Translations under genes and position numbers: made by a program | In this document: positions 49,216-60,639 of the stretch, one piece after another | Layout: every line of letters starts with the position of its first letter | Numbering within the stretch: position 1 is the first letter of the stretch | DNA from: Fistulifera solaris | Lineage: Eukaryota | Reading direction: 5' to 3' | Length of the DNA stretch: 64,000 nt | Assembly (NCBI GenBank): GCA_030295235.1 | Contig: AP026140.1 | Coordinates: 310,001-374,000, forward strand | Notes under the pieces: generated by a model | Seen by the model: the letters and a program-made list of their open reading frames with translations, nothing else | Told to the model about the DNA's origin: nothing | The model's database searches: none

Positions 49216-50111
49216 TCGTTACTTTTGACGAAGTCTCGTTCTTTACAACGCCGATGCACCGACTTGGAGTTGAGCAGTTTAAAATGCTCCCGCTAGTAAT
49301 ATTAGTACAGTCATGGAGTCGTGATTTCCCTGAACGTCATCCATGTGTTTTTTGTCTGCGCATCTGAATCACGATCTGAACTATTAGTCGTTTCATTGTA
49401 AGGATATCATAATCCATCCGTGAACCTGAGAGCTAAGCCCCCGCGAGAAAGATATACTTTGTTCTTTTCAAAACGCTAGTAGCGAGAGAAGAAGCAGAAG
49501 CTCATCTGCTCTTGTTTTCTTGTTTTATAGGCGAGCTATGAGAACCCTTTCTGTAATGACGATTATTATGGTGGTTTTGTGGATGATGACGATGTGGTGA
49601 GTAACCTGCAAATGGTTTGAAAGTGTGAATTATTCTCAAACAAAGCTACTGACGCTCAAGGTCAAGCTTCTAAGAAGCTGTTTAGTCTGCAACGGAGTTT
49701 TTCGAACTTCCGTTTCACCGCAACTGTAAGACTCGAAACTTAGAATTTACAACTTGGTTCATGTTTTATACTTAGTTCCGCAGCACTTTCGATAAAATCT
49801 GAACTAAACAGCAAGGTTTCATGTTCCACACCTACGGATGACATTTTACATTTGCCCTTCAAAAATAAGCACCTTTCAAGTCGTCGCCGTTCCGATCATA
49901 ATTCGCGTCAGGATCATTTTGAGAAGCCCGAGTTGTTTCGTCGCTATTCGCAGCCTCCTCTGTGCATTGTCAACCCCGGCATACATTTTTCGTTTCGCAG
50001 GTAGGTGAATTATCGAGTATTTAGCTCTTCCTGGTTTTCATATTCTAAGCGATTTAATGATTCTTTTCCTCACAAAGTTCTGACAGCACAAAGTTCATCC
50101 TTTTCGGAAAA

Positions 50112-51171
50112 ATGAAGGTAGCGAAAACGCTGGAAAAGAAGCGCAAGACGGTCAAAGACGGGCCACGTCGTCCTCTCACGGCTTACAATCTTTTCTTTCA
50201 AATTGGCCGCCAACGTCTAGTAAACGGAGAATCCGTCGACGACATCTCCGTTACTGACATTGACAACATGACTATCCACCAACAAGCAAGGCACAAGCTG
50301 AGGACTACACACCAGCGAACTCACGGAAAGATTGGTTTTCAAGAGCTGGCCAAGACATTGGGCGAAAAGTGGAGGGCTCTCGATCCGCTTTGTAAACGTC
50401 GCTTGGATGAGCTCGCAGTACAAGAGAAAAAGCGGTATGCAACGGAAATGGCCGCTTGGAAAAGAATCGAGAAGCTTCGTCTTCCAAGAATGCTAAGAAT
50501 ACTACCCTTGTGAGACCTTCCTCCATGAATCTTCGAGCGAGGAACATCTCTGCGCAGTCAAGCAAAAGAAAATTCCCCAGACCCAACCAATGCCTCGGTA
50601 CGCAATTGCGAAGCACCCCGTTGACCATACGCCAGGCTACCATGATGAAGGAAATGACGTAGCGAATCCAGAGGGCTTTCACAGATATGTACCCCCTCCT
50701 ACAGAAATTCAAGCGGGTTTCCATCCGTCCAGCTTGCAAAATGAGCACTTTCAACAGTACACGGCATATATCGAATCGTATCATAACCATCCGTATGATG
50801 CACCGACGGGTGTGTGGCAAGGGGCGACCGGTACCACGCAAACGTCTTCACAGCCCTATTGTACGGTACCTTGTGAAACCTTCCATCCCCTTTCGCCGCG
50901 GAAGGTCAGTCTCTCTAGCTGTCAGACCATGGAGCGCGCCGCATCCTACGATGGTATCGAACCCGTACAAATCAAAGAGTGGACTCAGCCGCCGCCGCAC
51001 AATGCTTATGAAGACTATCTTCATCGATATCCGGTGGCTCGCCCTATCGAGCAACACGCTCATCTCTCGTGCGAAGAGACCAACATGGTTCATTCCTTGA
51101 CCAACATTGACATGGACTTTTTGTCCGTGCACTGCGAAGACAACGATGATATCTCGGTCCTGGGTATGTGA
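50112..51171 (+). CDS. HMG-box transcription factor
   Basis: PRRPLTAYNLFF..HQRTHGKIGFQELAKTLGEKWRAL..EKKRY. Three ORFs join by adding one A at 50460-50463 and one at ~50564-50572. Confidence 0.88.
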
Positions 51172-51879
51172 ACTCACCACTATATACATAAGCTGTAATT
51201 GTTTCCGTTGCGGCAAGCATGCTTCGATGGGAACTCTCTCCTTGATTATTACTCCGTAAATAGATACATGCTGCGTTTGACCTCAGGGTGCCTCTTTTCA
51301 CTTTTAGTGCGCTGGTAAATTAAAGTATCGCGGTAAACGAGCATTGTCAACCAAGCTTCAAATTAACTTTTAGTTTCTCTTACTTCGTGCGTCCCTTTTT
51401 TGGTGTAAGTAAATTGATTGTTTTGTCAGCCAGTGCTATTTGCCCCGGACCTCGACAGCCCTTTGGCTCCATCACACGATTAAGTAATCAAGGCTTATAA
51501 ACTTAGTACAAACCTCACAGCGAGAGAGTGTCAATCATACTAGAAATAAATCATCATCGCATTCATCATCAATCATCGCATTCATCGACGCATTATTATG
51601 CTGCTGCGTACTGGTGAAAGAAAAAGCGAAGAGAATCAATCGATCATTCACAAGAGTGTTCTCGCAATACCGCTCTCTAAGTAAAAAATGTGAAGCATGT
51701 TCTGAGCGAAAATATCCATTAAACATAAACCGTGTATCAAAATCTGCACCTATTATATATTGCACCCTCTGCTGCGCGTTTTCTTCCCATGCAACGGATC
51801 ATTCGATCTGGGGGCGACGAGGGAGTGGTGTCAACAAGAAGCAAACTACAATAAATTCATATTCTATCAAAGATTCACC

Positions 51880-52576
51880 ATGACAACTTACTATCAGGTT
51901 CTGGAGGTACCATCGGACGCGTCGCTTTTAGACATCAAAAAAGCGTACCGACGTTTAGCGCTACAGCATCACCCCGATCGGAATCACGGAAGCGCCGCAT
52001 CGACGGAGCGTTTCAAAAGCATCAGTGAAGCGTACGAAGTCCTTTCCGATCCGGAACAAAGGAAAGAATACGATCGGAGTCTGCGGCTCGGGGCATCTAC
52101 AACAACAGCGCGACCTTCCTATTCTGCACCACCTCGTTATAGGAATCCGTACGATCAGTTTGACGATTTATTCCGCAATGATCCGTTTTTCAGCGAAGCG
52201 TTTCGCGATCTGGACGATGCTTTCGTACAAAAGTTTCAAAGTAAGGCTCCGCGATCGCAAAAACATCCGCAAGGTTGGCTTCCTTGGATTTTTGAACATG
52301 TGCGGTATTGATTTGGAGATGAGCACCACCTACCGATCGAACGATGGTACCTTCACCGCAACTCAATACAGTTCCAAGGCGGGAAAGACGTACACGGACC
52401 GCAAGACGAGAACGTATCGAGATGAGCGGGGTCGGCAAGTCACCGTGCATTCGATGGAAAAAGATGGTGATAGGATTGAAGACAAGTATATTGATGACGT
52501 GCGGGTAGAGAGAAGCATCAATGGAGTTCGACTGCCCATCGAATCGGTCATGTCAGAAGACTCGGGAATACAATGA
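51880..52576 (+). CDS. DnaJ (Hsp40) protein, DNAJB6-like
   Basis: [37 protein letters not shown], then an F/D-rich linker. The C-terminal ORF joins by removing one T at 52289-52293. Confidence 0.92.
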
Positions 52577-53309
52577 TGAGAAAGGAAACGCTTTCCTGTT
52601 GTCAAGTCTTTTATTTGCGACAAAGATGTGCGTTGGAAGTAGGTATTCCACTCCTCCCATGTCACTTTTTGCAGGCTTTTTCAGCTCTGATTGTTGAGGA
52701 GAGTTTTATGTCAACACCGTGGTTCTCTGCATCGGCAAGGGCTGGTACGAAATTCGAGGCTTACAGTTATTATAAGCAACAAGGGTAAAGGGAGCCATTT
52801 CTATAAATGATGCCGACCGACTTTCACCTATCCGGATTCGACTGTTGCCATGAGTAGTCCTAGACTAATCTTACATGATTCAACGTATCTATAACTTCAT
52901 TTAGTCAGTCCTGCGGATCTGTTTTCGCGCGGATCGTCTTTGTAGCTGCTGCAGTGCAGGAAATTGACGTGGGCAAAAAAATCTGAATGAAACAAGCTTT
53001 ACTCAAAGACTTTCGTCTCCATCATCTCAACTTTGTGGAGAACTTTTGTCGATTTATAGATGATAGCCACCAATGCATTGCATCTTCGATAACCTCTTAT
53101 ATTATGTAGCTAAAAAATTACTATAGTCCCAAGTGTAGGTTTACAGTCACCAAGACTGCATTTCAGTGAGTCACGATTTCCATTGAATTGTTTTAACGAT
53201 ATGATGCTTCAAATGTTTTACTCGTTTGAACTTTGAACATTGAGAGGTCGGTAAACGATTGAACTTAGAATCAGCGACAAGAAGAAGGATTTTTCAAAAG
53301 AAGTCGACG

Positions 53310-54747
53310 ATGCTTTCGCAATCACTGAGACGCTTGCGACCGATTTGGGGGGAACTTGCAACTACTAGGTCTCGTAACTCGCCTCTCGAGATGTGCCTTT
53401 CGACGGCTCATAACAGCAATCATAGTCATACGAACAGCCAGGACGACACTACACGCGACTGGGACTATCAATTTCAAAAACTCCGCGAACACATTCTAGC
53501 CATTGAAGCCGGAAAACGACGGAATGCCCATATTCCGTATCCACAAAACGACCCTGTCTTGGCGAAATGGATGAAGCTTCAAAGGGATGTCTACTATTCT
53601 CGACTAAAAGGCAAAACGAGTCCGTTAACACAACAGCAAAAAGAAAAACTTGAAGCGATCGGCTATCCCAATCCTACACATTCAAAGTTCTGGGAGGAGC
53701 GATTTTCCCAACTAGAAGACTTTGTGCGTTCACATGGCTGTTTTCCGTACGATCGAGAGCTCTCTGAGCTTTCGGATGCGGATCGGAAGCTTTACTGGTG
53801 GTGCGAGAGTCAGAAAAAGGCCTACAAATTGCAACGAACGGGACAAACTTCGCCCATGACGGCCGAACGAGAACAAAAATTGAATCAATTGGGGTTCTGC
53901 TGGAATGCGGACGAAGAGAGTTGGCACAATCGTTACCAGGAACTAGTAGAATATCGCAAAGAACACGGAGACTGTCTCGTACCGGCAAATTATGTCAATG
54001 CGTCGCTGGCGAAGTGGGTGGGGCAACAACGATTTCAGTACAAACTATTCATTGAGGGCAAACCGGGTGGTATCGCGAAGGAGCGTATTGATTTGCTTAA
54101 TGAATTAGATTTTGTATGGAATGCATTCGATGCGATTTGGTCGGCACGATACGAAGAGTTGCGTCAGTATCGTGAGCGTCACGGTAATTGTCGTGTGCCT
54201 TTTGACTATCCCGAAAATCCGTCTTTGGCGTTTTGGGTGATTGAACAAAGGAGACTTTACAACAACAATGCCCATGGAATGCCGGGAGAGCGAATTCAGC
54301 AGCTCGAAGACTTGGGTTTTGAATGGAATGTACAAGATGCTAAATGGTGGGATCATTACAACGAGCTGCGAAAGTATCATCAGCAACGTGGGGATTGCTT
54401 GGTCCCGACTAAATACCCGGCGAATCAATACCTTTCAAATTGGGTGCAGCGACAACGAAAACTCGGCAAAAGTGAAAAAGTTGATCAAGAACGCATCCGT
54501 GCACTAGAGTCGCTCGATTTTTGTTGGGACGCGCGAGATGCGCTTTGGATGGAACGATACAAAGAACTTGAAGAATACGTTAAAATGAATGGGTACGGAA
54601 ATGCTCCTTCGGCCAAGCATCTTCCGTCACTGAAAAAGATGGTTCAGCAACCAAGTAAAACAGCAAAGGCTTCGCCTGGAAGGACAACCGAGTAGTATGA
54701 CCGAGAGTCGATTGCAACGATTGAAGAAACTGGGTTTTATTCTTTAG
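53310..54747 (+). CDS. Helicase-associated (HA) domain repeat protein with six repeats and a mitochondrial-type presequence
   Basis: Repeats of W..RY.EL..Y...HG.C.VP..L..WV..QR..L..LGF.W. The sixth repeat is completed (LKRWFSNQ..RLKKLGFIL*) by removing one A at 54633-54637. Confidence 0.88.
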
Positions 54748-54874: not shown

Positions 54875-56931
54875 TTACTTGCGCTTTTGTGGAGGAGTAA
54901 AGAAGTCGTTCATATCCATCCCAAAATATTCTTCGAAGTCTGCAATGGTGGAGCGAAGATCCGTGAGACCTGATAAATCAAGTGTGAAAAAATACAGCAC
55001 AAGCGGTATCCTTACCGTCAAATCGCAAACCGAGACCCGAAAAGTCACTTTTGACTTCGTTCCACATGTTCCCCCTCGATTCCATCTTATCGGCTAGCTT
55101 CGCTCTCCTTTGTAGTTCCTCGAACCCCCACGTAGCCTCTTCCGATGTAGTAAAGCACCCAAAGTAGCCATGAGGGACGGCGACGCCTAAAGAAAGTCGA
55201 GTGATCGGTCCCCGAGAAACGTCGCTTGCATTCAATATAATCAGCTCACTTTTCTTTCTTCTTTCCATCGTACAAGACGGATAAGATGTAACCGGAATTC
55301 TCTGAGACTTCGCCACCCTTTCTCGGTGCGTACATGGGTTCACCACAGAATTCATGTGATTCTGGCATCCAGGTTTGAACTTGTTGTGTCTCGCAATCGA
55401 AACAGGCAATGCCTTGAGGTGGTGCTGCCTGTGCTCCAGTAGCACCGATGTTCATATACATGAATCTATGGCGCTGTGTGCTGTACTCTGGATTGATCAC
55501 TCCGAAACAAGAATGGCCTGGGAAAAGTTCAGTCTTTGTGATCACTCCTCGGCGAGTATCAATAGTATACCGCCATAAGGATTTTCGAGACGCAACGGCA
55601 CGATAGTGTTCGAGCGACTCGGCCCATGGCCATTGCAGCGACCGACTAGCATCGAGTGACGAGCCATCTGATCGAATAGCATCCATGATTATGTTATCTC
55701 CATCTTCGTAGGCGTTAATAAATTGTGCATTAGCGTCCGAAACGTCATCCACCGGAATAGAAAAACTCTCCGGAGCTTTGCCACTTCCGGGCCGTGGAAT
55801 CAAATGCAGCATGGCGGGTCCATTCCCCACAGTCAGCACGGAACCAGGCTCCTTGGACAGGAGGAATTTCATCCCATTTACTGAGATATCCGGCTGTACA
55901 AACACTCCATAATTCGTGGTAGCAGCAAAATCGTTGATGAGCGCCAAGCCAGGAACATTCGTCAAAGAACGACCTCCTTCCACCAAAGCGAAGTTGGCGT
56001 CAAACTCATAGGTAACAATCTCGGATTGTTTCGCACCCGTTTCCACAGAATGGAACAAAGCTCGTTTCTGGATGGGATCGTACACCATTTTACAACTAAA
56101 GGGCATTTCCTCTTTCGGAATGGCGCCACCCAATCGGGATCGTCCTTCGGTCGACAATGCCAAGGCGTCCATTTTAAACGGTTGACCTCCATCCCACAGA
56201 CTGATCAGTCGTTTCGCCCAATACACAGGTCTCGTATTCGATGTATTTTTACGCAAACGATTGAGCCCGGGTTGTAAATGATACCGAAACAGTGGCAACG
56301 GGATATCATTGGCCAAGGAAGGTCCCAATTGACGTGTCGAATCCATGCCTTCGTATAATTTCATGCCTTTTTTGCGTTCGTTGGTGAATCCGGGTGTACG
56401 TACGTATCGAAACCGTGCCGTCACTTCCACCGACGATCCCTCCTCGCCGTCGTTCGCACGAGGAGAAAAGGTAATACCGAGTATGGCACCATCTCCTTCG
56501 TAGGGATGTTGTACCATACGCTCCGGTTGTTGACCATCGGGAACAGGATCCTGTTTGGGTTGTACAATCACCGTTTTGGGTGGCTTGATCGAGCCGGCAC
56601 TGAACATGGCTGGACCGGAACGAAAATAACTGCCCACTAGATCATCAGGAATTTCTCCCTGGGTGGGTATGCACAAATGATATGGTAATTCTGTGAACAC
56701 GGTCGTATAACCTGACGCGAAAGCGGTCATGTCAGGTTCTTTGCTTGTCGTCGAAGGGGTTGTTGTCGTCGAAGAGTCTTCCTGTGGTATCGTCGCCATT
56801 TTATACCGTTTCCATGTCCTTATTTCATTGTTTGAAAAGGGCGATTGAAAGGCATATACCGAGTGTGATCTGAACATTATCAATGACAATGTCAAAACAC
56901 AGGAAAGATCTGCCGATAATACAGACCTCAT
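54875..56931 (-). CDS. Plastid-targeted carotenoid oxygenase (RPE65/CCD)-fold protein lacking the iron ligands
   Basis: Signal ..SVYA-F. GEIPDDLVGSYFRSGP, HPYEGDG, RYVRT, KNTSNT, NAYED, GEPMYAP, GYILSV, SELIILNA. One extra base at 55250-55253; intron 55015-54940; last exon 54939-54875. Confidence 0.88.
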
Positions 56932-57683: not shown

Positions 57684-58201
57684 CTATTCGTCGTCTGCAA
57701 GTGCAGACGATTCTTCGCTTGTTTTGAGCTTCTTCTGTTGACTTCCCACTACCACCACGTCTCTCTTTTTGTGACGAAATGGAGCGTGTTCAGTTGCCAT
57801 GGCCAATTCTTCCACAACAAATTGTGTTACATCGTTCTCCTTCGGCCGAACCTGGGCCAAAATTAACGTTTTGTGCAAATCGGGCATACTTCGTACCAAT
57901 GATTGCATTTGTCGCCAGTCCAGATAGCCGTCTATGATGCAGCAACAATAATATCAGCACAATAGAGTCGTTTACACGCGACAAAATCTGGTCTTTTTAG
58001 CGAAATAATCCAACACAAAAAGGTCGTACCTTCCTGTACAACATGAACACAAAAGTCGGAGTGAACTCGAGAAGGATCATCGGCATACAAGACCAACTCG
58101 CAGCCAAACTGCAATCCAGAATGCACCCGGTAGCCCTTGGCTTCGAAATGCTTTCGGACAATGCGGACGCGCGATTCCCACGGATCCGATACAACTTCCA
58201 T
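57684..58201 (-). CDS. tRNA-splicing endonuclease catalytic subunit (Sen2/Sen34-like), 139 aa
   Basis: Intron 58029-57932. GYRVHSGLQFGCELVLY..DP..VHS..R...LHKTLILA retains the Tyr/His/Lys triad. Confidence 0.85.
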
Positions 58202-58508
58202 TCTTCCGTGTCGTGATTGATAAAAGATAAATAAAAGTCAAGGATCTTCAACCACAAAGCCAGAATACCTGTATACTTTGTATAGAGAAGGCAGGCAATC
58301 TTCAAGATTTTTCTGCAAAAGATTTCTGCGGTATGACGATATCCATATATGCAAGCGCAGACGGACGGACATAGCTAATTGGACTCCAACGATGCGAGAC
58401 TCAATAAAGAAATCCAGTCCCGGAAATATATTGACCGCTATTTTCAAATTTCATTTTCATTTCATCAGATTGTTCCGCTTGATTGTTTTGAACGAATCAT
58501 TCATTACA

Positions 58509-59549
58509 ATGTCATCACCCGCCTCGCTTCCACGCATAGGTCTTGGTATGGCTGCATTGGGGCGCCCAGGATATATCAACTTGGACCGATACATTACGTT
58601 CGGTTCCGATCATTCGCAACGGACGGTCGACCGGATGCAGACGCAAAGCAACCTTGTTTTGGATCGGCTTTTCCAACTCTGCTCTACTCTTCATCAATCG
58701 AATGCTGCTAACAATTTATCAGGCAACAACTGCAGTTCTCTGCCATGGATCGATTGTGCCCGATCGTACGGGCTGTCGGAACGATTTGTTGGCGAATACT
58801 TGCGATCGCGTCACATTTCCCCGAACGATGTGTACGTGAGCTCCAAATGGGGGTACGCTTACGTTGCGAATTTCGCTGTTACATTGCCCGGAACTGCACC
58901 CCACGAAATCAAAGATCATTCCGTGGAACAATTTCTGAAACAAGTGAAAGAAACGGATTCGTTTCTCGGGGAATACATCAATCTGTATCAGATTCATTCC
59001 GCAACCTTCGAGTCCGGCGTTCTCGAAAACGTTCAAGTACATCATGCACTGGATCAATGTCGCCGAGAGCGAGGATGGAAGATTGGATTATCGGTATCGA
59101 GTCCGCAACAGGATCAAATTATTCGTGCCGCCATGAAGATTCGCGTCGACGATCGACCACTATTTGACTCAGTACAATGCACTTACAACCTACTCGAGCA
59201 ACGCCCGGGACCTGCACTGCAAGAGGCGCACAACATGGGGATGGATATAATAATCAAAGAAGGCTTGGCCAATGGTCGGATACTACGCCAATCTGCCGTG
59301 ATCCGATACAGTGAACAGCTAGCGTGTCAACCGGATCAACTTGCTTTAGCTGTAATTTTGGCACAACCTTTTCAACCACGTGTCTTATCAGGTGCCGTGA
59401 CGCCCGAACAACTCAAGTCGAATTTTCAAGTTGCTTCCGTCCAAGAGAAGCTGCAAGCGAATCCTTCCTTGTTGAAAGAAATTATGGAAGCTTGTGTGGT
59501 TCCCAGTGAGGAGTACTGGGCAGAGAGAGCAGCGTTAGAATGGAATTAA
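58509..59549 (+). CDS. Aldo/keto reductase
   Basis: GLGMAALGRPGYINL, DCARSYG.SE, SSKWGY, LYQIHSA, IGLS, Q.TYNLLE, KEGLANG, VLSGA. Confidence 0.92.
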   Translation: MSSPASLPRIGLGMAALGRPGYINLDRYITFGSDHSQRTVDRMQTQSNLVLDRLFQLCSTLHQSNAANNLSGNNCSSLPWIDCARSYGLSERFVGEYLRSRHISPNDVYVSSKWGYAYVANFAVTLPGTAPHEIKDHSVEQFLKQVKETDSFLGEYINLYQIHSATFESGVLENVQVHHALDQCRRERGWKIGLSVSSPQQDQIIRAAMKIRVDDRPLFDSVQCTYNLLEQRPGPALQEAHNMGMDIIIKEGLANGRILRQSAVIRYSEQLACQPDQLALAVILAQPFQPRVLSGAVTPEQLKSNFQVASVQEKLQANPSLLKEIMEACVVPSEEYWAERAALEWN

Positions 59550-59961
59550 GATATCGAAATAACTTTGCTACTAAATTTAATGAATTACAGCTTGTCATCT
59601 TTTTCGGTTTAAAAAATTAGGTACAGTAGTGAATAACAAAGTCTTTAGTAGAAAATCCAGTCACGAGTCGTACCGGTAAGCAATTCTCCGCCGCTTACGG
59701 AGTATTATTTTCTGACTTCTGACAATAAAACTTTGCTAGAGATAGATGGACGATCGACGATGGCGGACGATCGTTGTTTGGTCATCAGTCAACGTTCACA
59801 AACAATACTGGACAGCTAATAAATTCATGGCACGAAAGAAATCGCTCAATCTCGCTCTTTGTTGCTATACACTCTTTGCGAAACGATATTCGGTCGAGTG
59901 CTCATTCATAAAAGAAAGAACCCTTTGTTTTCCTGCTCATCGACAAGTTCACAGCTTCTCC

Positions 59962-60639
59962 ATGACAGCCATGGAAGATCCAGTGGCCAAGATGGGACTT
60001 CCAGGTCCTCTTATATTAGGATCTGGATCTTTTACAAGAAAGCTTATATTAAAAGAAATGGGCATTAACTTTCAGGTCATCAAACGACCCATCGATGAAA
60101 AAAGTTTGGGCGATCGAACATCCAATCCGGAGGACTTGGTTCTCACCCTAGCTAAGGCTAAAATGGACCATTTAGTTAATGAAATAATAGCCGGTCGCTG
60201 CGATGACGAACTGCCGAAGCACGCCGCGTCAGAATGGATTGTTTTGACGGGCGATCAAGTTGTCGTATGCGACGGATCCATTTTAGAAAAGCCCGACTCT
60301 GTTCAGGAAGCCAAGGAGTTTGTCAGCAAGTATGCGTTGACGCCACCTAGTACAGTCGGATCTTGTGTGATAAAGCATATCCCCTCTGGTATTCAAGTCG
60401 AAGGAGTGGATACAGCCACCATCTACTTTAAGCAGGCGTTGAATGCCGATGAATTGGTGGATAGACTGCTAGCGAGCGATGCCCCCATCTTAGGTTGTGC
60501 TGGAGGCCTTATGGTGGAGCATCCTTTTGTTCGAGAATACTTAGACAGGATTGATGGAACGGAAGACAGTGTTTTGGGACTTAGTAAACGTCTTGTGTTG
60601 AAACTACTTGATGATCTATCGGCAAAACTAAGGAGCTAA
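59962..60639 (+). CDS. Maf-like nucleotide pyrophosphatase
   Basis: LILGSGSFTRKLIL, IDEK, LAKAK, TGDQVV..ILEKP, CAGGLMVEHP, IDGTEDSVLGL. Confidence 0.92.
   Translation: MTAMEDPVAKMGLPGPLILGSGSFTRKLILKEMGINFQVIKRPIDEKSLGDRTSNPEDLVLTLAKAKMDHLVNEIIAGRCDDELPKHAASEWIVLTGDQVVVCDGSILEKPDSVQEAKEFVSKYALTPPSTVGSCVIKHIPSGIQVEGVDTATIYFKQALNADELVDRLLASDAPILGCAGGLMVEHPFVREYLDRIDGTEDSVLGLSKRLVLKLLDDLSAKLRS

Follow-up and report, generated by a model that had tools for sequence, protein, structure and literature searches.

We have identified a gene in a 64,000-nucleotide stretch of the Fistulifera solaris genome (the window) whose product, from sequence comparison, is probably a plastid pseudo-oxygenase, encoded in the nucleus and belonging to the ACO branch of the carotenoid cleavage oxygenases (CCOs). 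The protein is predicted to keep the propeller of these enzymes, lacks the four histidines that bind their iron, and ends in a conserved tail; the same genome encodes a paralogue with four histidines and no tail. The family itself is known. A member that is an iron-free pseudo-oxygenase of the plastid, bears a red-lineage tail, and is complemented by a catalytic paralogue has, it appears, probably not been described: a literature search, with most subscription papers outside its scope, returned no account of either the tail or the iron-free subfamily of diatoms. Diatom carotenoid oxygenases were functionally uncharacterized as of late 2025, according to the available text of PMC12654249, and close homologs are annotated in databases as active apocarotenoid oxygenases.

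Gene Model, Splicing, and Selection

The gene and the features that define its reading frame are as follows.

54875..56931, minus strand: whole gene, ATG at 56931 and TAA at 54875
55249..55252, minus strand: extra base in an A-run, a frameshift of the assembly and not of the organism (55250 base missing from the X1, X5, and X2 contigs)
54940..55015, minus strand: 76-nt GT..AG terminal intron, donor at 55015 (skipped in one X4 contig)
54875..54939, minus strand: last exon, with the acidic tail end and the stop codon (X4 contig; DD-EE-F conserved in orthologues)

The preliminary description took the gene structure to be intact. As assembled, however, the frame is broken by a +1 frameshift in the A-run near 55250; the first open frame, before the break, encodes 561 amino acids, and a product of 659 amino acids is expected by length count after correction of the frame. 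An X5 short-read contig spanning 55210-55400 lacks the 55250 base and differs at 0 other letters, and the X1 and X2 contigs agree in having one base fewer at this position. An X4 contig skips 54940-55015 with 0 mismatches, which indicates that a transcript exists; this evidence for splicing is a single contig (depth 4.4, 20 letters on its short side) from a run whose kind was guessed as RNA. Since the extra base is missing from the short-read contigs and the 76-nt intron is spliced out in another contig, the gene is expressed and the frameshift at 55250 is an error of the assembly. The alternative of a small intron at this position was ruled out by inspection, since the nearest GT..AG would remove conserved residues.

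The homeolog on contig C20 carries the same frame break plus a second homopolymer slip. The dN/dS between the two homeologs is 0.36 over the leader (residues 1-64), 0.09 over the propeller, and 0.025 over the tail portion of the exon, where 1 of 44 codons has changed. The gene is thus shown to be under purifying selection. That both homeologs are frameshifted as assembled might suggest a decaying pseudogene or an annotation artefact, a reading that we regard as hardly credible given the short-read contigs without the extra base, the spliced intron, the propeller dN/dS, the full-length diatom relatives at 50-90% identity, and the finding that other CCO loci of the assembly are broken likewise. 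A real frameshift or pseudogene was ruled out by the short-read contigs, the splicing, and the homeolog dN/dS.

Frameshifts split four of the eight loci that the assembly holds for the CCO family: C12 (L002/L010), C20 (L007/L012/L013), C26 (L008/L009/L011), and the window at 55250. The frameshifts examined (window and C20) sit in A-runs, and "broken gene" calls in the F. solaris assembly need a short-read check. Among the database proteins, P0003, P0004, P0061, P0126, and P0127 apparently read through the intron near the C-terminus, which leaves their last residues or their entire tail wrong or missing.

The convergent neighbor at 53244-54695 (plus strand) encodes five HA (helicase-associated) repeats (Pfam E 2.4e-76) and adjoins the C20 homeolog as well. 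Four further plus-strand genes, assigned with Pfam, are unconnected to the present finding: an HMG-box gene at 50061-50513, a DnaJ gene at 51706-52576 that runs on in a second frame (an intron or a frameshift), an aldo-keto reductase gene at 58224-59549, and a Maf-like gene at 59746-60639. A minus-strand ORF piece at 57932-58237 was judged by eye to resemble a tRNA-splicing endonuclease catalytic subunit, part of which it may encode.

Propeller, Leader, and Inserts

55250..56736, minus strand: RPE65/CCO seven-blade propeller, part before the frameshift (PF03055, ACO match, orthologue model)
55152..55249, minus strand: last blade of the propeller (second ORF piece, end of the Pfam profile)
56851..56931, minus strand: predicted signal peptide, residues 1-27, ending at an A|F plastid-type cleavage motif (hydropathy, sequence)
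56737..56850, minus strand: predicted transit peptide and S/T-rich linker, residues 28-65 (sequence; dN/dS; orthologue pLDDT <50 at 13-61)
56521..56607, minus strand: diatom-clade proline-rich insert 1, residues 109-137 (absent from ACO and from non-diatom relatives except P0131)
56254..56346, minus strand: diatom-clade insert 2, residues 196-226 (ACO alignment, comparison with non-diatom relatives)

The first piece of the protein matches the Pfam RPE65 family (PF03055) with E 1.7e-68 and 232 bits against a cut-off of 27, over profile positions 3-434 of 469; the second piece covers positions 435-468. An AlphaFold2 model of the orthologue P0005, which is 60% identical to the window protein, was obtained from a 59-row alignment with a pLDDT of 79.5. 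The best structural match of this model is ACO of Synechocystis (Z 41.4-41.6, rmsd 2.3, 456 aligned residues, 29% identity), and the propeller fold is shown to be intact as far as the orthologue model can represent it.

The leader consists of a hydrophobic stretch followed by A|F at residues 27/28. A Phe of the ASAFAP type after the signal peptide is a mark of nucleus-encoded diatom plastid proteins. An A, S, or G before Phe was found within residues 15-40 in 80 of 100 full-length rows, by a loose pattern with no shuffled control. Targeting of the protein to the plastid is plausible from this leader.

Both inserts are well conserved within the diatom clade, with 14 of 29 columns of insert 1 and 16 of 31 columns of insert 2 at least 90% conserved. 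A His-His pair in insert 2 is kept in 118 and 119 of 121 rows. Insert 2 takes the place of an ACO loop that we take to be the membrane patch of that enzyme.

Loss of the Iron Site

56089..56091, minus strand: K281 in place of the Fe ligand His183 (ACO alignment, codon mapping; Lys in 114 of 121 rows)
55933..55935, minus strand: N333 in place of His238 (ACO alignment, codon mapping; S 62, N 50, H 2 of 121 rows)
55723..55725, minus strand: Q403 in place of His304 (ACO alignment, codon mapping; Q 99, H 9 of 121 rows)
55161..55163, minus strand: Phe in place of His484 (family profile; F 61, H 40, Y 18 of 121 rows)
56191..56193, minus strand: D247, equivalent of second-shell Glu150 (ACO alignment; Glu in 113 of 121 rows)
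55507..55509, minus strand: C475 in place of second-shell Glu370 (ACO alignment, codon mapping)
55339..55341, minus strand: E531, equivalent of second-shell Glu426, retained (ACO alignment; kept in 120 of 121 rows)

Synechocystis ACO is the best sequence match (E 1.8e-41 to 2biw), and alignment to it with codon mapping bore out both the motifs and the coordinates that had been assigned to the four ligand sites in the preliminary description. The His484 site lies past the frameshift and was hence placed by the family profile instead of by direct ACO alignment. Relatives with four histidines read PHGLHG at this site, which shows that the "PHG" His at 55170-55172 does not occupy the ligand position. 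By sequence and profile alignment, the four-His Fe(II) center of catalytic CCOs is replaced here by K, N, Q, and F. Two of the three second-shell acids of ACO (Glu150/370/426; PMC13734108, available text) are acidic in this protein (D247 and E531), and the full set is thus incomplete.

The available text of PMC5643517 states that iron is held by four His and presents this as common to all CCOs, and that of PMC6060882 reports that ACO activity is supported by Fe(II) only. On these grounds, oxidative carotenoid cleavage by the window protein is very unlikely, as judged from the alignments. A search with the first piece returned 262 proteins at E <= 1e-20. The best 120 of the 262 are 50-90% identical to the query, and the named members among them are centric and pennate diatoms. 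None of the four His is present in 71 of these 120, one in 47, two in 2, and more than two in 0. The earlier proposal of a pseudo-oxygenase is therefore sustained by orthologues that lack the His, by splicing of the gene, and by purifying selection.

The shared and divergent features of known systems place this loss in context. Synechocystis ACO/Diox1 (apocarotenoid-15,15'-oxygenase; 2biw, 4ou9, 5kk0) shares the propeller and several tunnel residues, whereas the window protein is without the Fe-ligand His, has lost Glu370, and has gained two inserts, a plastid leader, and the tail. The RPE65 retinoid isomerase and lancelet BCOLg have an altered chemistry or second shell but keep the 4-His iron center, according to the accessible portions of PMC5643517 and PMC13734108. 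Phycomyces blakesleeanus CCD-like genes without the expected His are an anecdotal precedent; these genes differ in being fungal and, in the excerpts available from PMC5133782, are not described as conserved or functional and are reported with neither a plastid leader nor a tail.

An alternative is an enzyme that works without a metal or with a different one, such as a xanthophyll-synthesis isomerase, hydratase, or dehydratase, and that could use the new Lys, the retained Glu, or the His-His pair. The Lys at the His183 site (114 of 121), the His pair of insert 2, and the Cys in CGEP are all conserved, and the RPE65 fold is known from the available text of PMC5643517 to host nonoxidative chemistry, though with iron. 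Against such an enzyme, the replacement residues vary between and within lineages (K/S/A/G/T/F/R), H, C, D, or E fills at most two of the four sites in the 120 close homologs, and conservation is maximal in the tail and surface inserts rather than at the propeller axis. We regard this explanation as quite unlikely.

The C-Terminal Tail

55016..55109, minus strand: conserved C-terminal tail, a basic helix followed by the WNEVKSDFSGLG motif (W at 55062-55064; column conservation, homeolog)

The tail is the best-conserved segment of the protein, with 23 of 31 columns at least 90% conserved versus 102 of 367 in the main propeller (120 close homologs), and it is identical to that of the homeolog at 40 of 40 residues. 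The W, N, F, S, G, L, and G are near-invariant across 133 tailed proteins. The consensus, W-N-x-hydrophobic-x-[S/G]-x-F-S-G-L-G, marks a red-lineage clade. The tail had been described as an extra appendage of this protein; instead, it is older than the diatoms and its most conserved segment.

In the P0005 model the helix past the propeller (594-609) is confident and the motif (612-628) has a pLDDT <50. A low value in a monomer model is as expected if the tail folds on a partner, and it may alternatively reflect the shallow alignment (59 rows) behind the prediction.

The tail touched six Pfam families, each on 1 of 17 members and none at its cut-off. A search of the PDB gave three matches only (E 0.69-1.2), which were treated as chance; one of these is a weak likeness of 55029-55064 (minus strand) to the photosystem I subunit PsaL (9ygv_L 111-125, E 1.2) and is probably fortuitous. 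In the ESM Atlas, the first match of the tail (0.78) was uninformative, and the core returned RPE65 clusters only. No copy of the tail was found elsewhere in the F. solaris genome beyond the two homeologs. Searches of prokaryote genomes with P0143 patterns found no relative, and with the C-terminal piece gave two matches, both to residues 1-34 only, which are the end of the propeller; a phage search also found no relatives.

The tail has also to be weighed as an amphipathic membrane anchor of a carotenoid or apocarotenoid carrier or sensor, whose iron-free tunnel would bind pigment. Such a role is compatible with the tail-dependent binding protein that we prefer (see below). The equivalents of the tunnel-side ACO residues T136, W149, E150, F69, and F371 persist, where the tunnel role of the first three was taken from the titles of PDB mutant entries and F69 and F371 are assumed by us to be tunnel residues. 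Within the tail motif, W, V, F, and L fall at helical spacing. Apo-ACO stays folded with its site accessible, according to the portion of PMC6060882 at hand. The anchor itself fares less well: the hydrophobic moment of the tail 11-mer is not above that of shuffled sequences, 17% of which reach the same value, and the polar N, S, G, and G are near-invariant from red algae to diatoms, which a simple lipid anchor would not usually show. The membrane loop of ACO has been replaced, and the W149 and E150 equivalents are lost in several non-diatom His-less members. A carrier or sensor is, in our judgment, unlikely though worth keeping in view.

Distribution of the Tail and the Histidines

Beyond the diatoms, relatives were collected by a profile search of 1.84 billion representatives, with the 150 best inspected, by 20 diverse tailed queries, and by name look-ups. 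The tail was found in 4-His proteins of Galdieria, Cyanidiococcus, Cyanidium, Porphyridium, Ectocarpus, Scytosiphon, Pinguiococcus, and Rhizochromulina, and in His-less proteins of Rhodosorus, Chattonella, Chrysoparadoxa, and Polarella, as well as unnamed ones. It was present in 0 of 18 named cyanobacterial ACOs.

The tail and the His were counted in a diatom-heavy set of 509 proteins, of which 463 were scored after removal of 46 with an incomplete His site. Proteins with at most two His number 143, and the tail (>=15 bits) is present in 142 of these, a count that is dominated by diatoms and made with a tail profile built from 17 of the same tails. The exception, P0155, scores 9 bits and has a degenerate tail by eye. 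All 7 proteins with three His are without a tail. Among the 313 proteins with four His, the tail is present in 64 and absent in 249.

Red algae make neither fucoxanthin nor diadinoxanthin. The tailed orthogroup, including the His-less and tailed member of the red alga Rhodosorus marinus, is nevertheless present in them, and the role specific to these two pigments that was suggested at first is therefore unsupported.

The tailed 4-His ACO-like proteins (Galdieria partita g7507, Cyanidiococcus F1559_003337, Porphyridium KAA8491528, Ectocarpus, Pinguiococcus, Rhizochromulina) belong to the same clade and share the tail motif with the window protein but differ in keeping the four His and the acidic second shell. 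For g7507, mRNA and protein log2FC values of 1.94 and 3.46 are given in supplement file 4 of PMC12145455; g7507 was matched to P0149 by gene number, and the direction, photoautotroph over heterotroph, was read from the time course. In the available parts of the same source, g7507 is placed in cluster 1, which is enriched for plastid and photosynthesis genes, and it drops on glucose and returns on greening; the tail-less g5293 is likewise in cluster 1 and is missing from the protein table. Since g7507 is the 4-His form, its expression would bear on the His-less protein only indirectly. Knockout of the Cyanidioschyzon merolae "NCED" CMS362C, a possible orthologue of these tailed proteins, left the alga without ABA, as reported in the text available from PMC5002421 and PMC5750630.

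Paralogues, Split Pairs, and Phylogeny

F. solaris has one tailed locus, present as two homeologs, and a 4-His tail-less paralogue on C11/C12. The latter keeps HHHH/EEE and has a plastid-type leader, and it is 29% identical to the window protein. Similar proteins in Nitzschia, Cylindrotheca, Ditylum, and Mayamaea fall in the same red-lineage clade. The best 52 matches of the paralogue comprise 49 4-His tail-less proteins, 2 tailed ones (one of which groups with Pinguiococcus), and 1 incomplete. Its search gave about 50 diatom-clade matches at 41% identity or above, whereas the 120 listed matches of the window gene are all at least 50% identical. From these figures, the catalytic paralogue looks less constrained, and may be patchier, than the tailed gene.

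Four CCO-family genes occur in the genome on the pairs C11/C12, C13/C14, C19/C20, and C25/C26, each pair about 90% alike and with the same neighbors, as would fit a diatom with an allodiploid genome. His motifs are retained in the other three genes (the third His of C25 was placed by eye, as the profile misplaced it).

The same split is found elsewhere, though the per-genome inventory covers F. solaris only. In Cylindrotheca fusiformis, P0065 is His-less and tailed versus P0433 with four His and no tail; in Chrysoparadoxa, the corresponding proteins are P0181 and P0156. Across dinoflagellate species, Polarella P0152 is His-less and tailed versus the 4-His tail-less Scrippsiella P0325 and Durusdinium P0463. 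A pairing in Chattonella is probable, its 4-His copy (P0356) being incomplete at the fourth site. A tail-less duplicate exists in Galdieria, and its sister keeps the His.

A quick IQ-TREE analysis was made of 49 rows with the His columns and the tail excluded. The 44 eukaryotic rows form one clade against the 5 cyanobacterial rows (SH-aLRT 100); another clade, also at SH-aLRT 100, unites P0131 with the His-less rows of the diatoms. The tail-less 4-His groups need at least four changes on starred branches, so that repeated loss of the tail is supported by this tree. Loss of the His requires 3 changes in the quick tree, and no more than 1 is forced by the starred branches. The AU test did not reject a common origin for the 13 His-less rows (p 0.686; constrained lnL 10.9 higher), and five long branches weaken this test in both directions. 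Repeated independent loss of the His is on this account not established; a single early duplication followed by differential loss, or long-branch attraction, may explain the pattern. Within the red-lineage clade, P0225 (Asterionellopsis glacialis), P0199, P0226, and P0265 form another group with long branches, four His, and no tail.

Proposed Function

We consider it reasonably probable that an ancestral moonlighting plastid CCO was split into an enzyme and a noncatalytic, tail-dependent binding or scaffold protein. The red-algal ancestral protein would have had two jobs, carotenoid cleavage with four His and a noncatalytic job that requires the tail. After duplication, one copy would have kept the iron and lost the tail (F. 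solaris C11/C12), and the other would have kept the tail and lost the iron (the window gene). The tail most likely would fold upon binding a conserved plastid partner, with the propeller as the platform; this partner would probably be located at the photosynthetic apparatus or the thylakoid. The conserved Lys that replaces His183 lies beside the retained Glu150 and Glu426 equivalents and may fill the empty metal site.

This proposal is favored by the dual-trait proteins of Ectocarpus, Scytosiphon, Pinguiococcus, Rhizochromulina, Cyanidiococcus, Cyanidium, Galdieria, and Porphyridium, by the lack of a clear His-less tail-less protein (142 of 143 tailed), and by the split pairs within named species and genomes and across dinoflagellate species. 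Also in its favor are the 49 of 52 best paralogue matches that have four His and no tail, the single eukaryotic clade, the low dN/dS of the tail, the low model confidence of the motif, and the expression and cluster placement of g7507. Counting against the proposal are the unrejected single origin of the His-less rows, the tail-less duplicate of Galdieria together with the presence of g5293 in cluster 1, and the retention of one or two His in 47 + 2 of the 120 close homologs.

Pseudoenzymes often regulate active paralogues. The window protein might accordingly serve its own catalytic paralogue as a subunit for regulation or assembly, in which case the tail would be a dimer latch and would bind a CCO propeller in trans. 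Every named pair found does include a 4-His tail-less paralogue. However, the two diatom paralogues are only distantly alike at the 29% identity given above, and the enzyme, as noted, appears less constrained and perhaps patchier than the tailed gene. We give this possibility a slim chance.

More tentatively, and as a possibility that we would not yet lean on, the split of a moonlighting CCO can be extended to the whole lineage. The tail would then mark a conserved protein-binding function of red-lineage plastids, for example photosynthetic-complex assembly or carotenoid delivery, which would have moonlighted in the red-algal ancestor and then been handed to iron-free copies several times independently (diatoms plus a sister lineage, dinoflagellates, raphidophytes, Chrysoparadoxa, and some red algae).

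With the iron site lost from one paralogue and the tail from the other, the pair is a clear candidate for subfunctionalization. An iron-free, diatom-wide subfamily annotated as an active oxygenase would mislead models of carotenoid turnover and of the ABA pathway. The split pattern points to a plastid interaction that is testable in Phaeodactylum, Cyanidioschyzon, or Galdieria.
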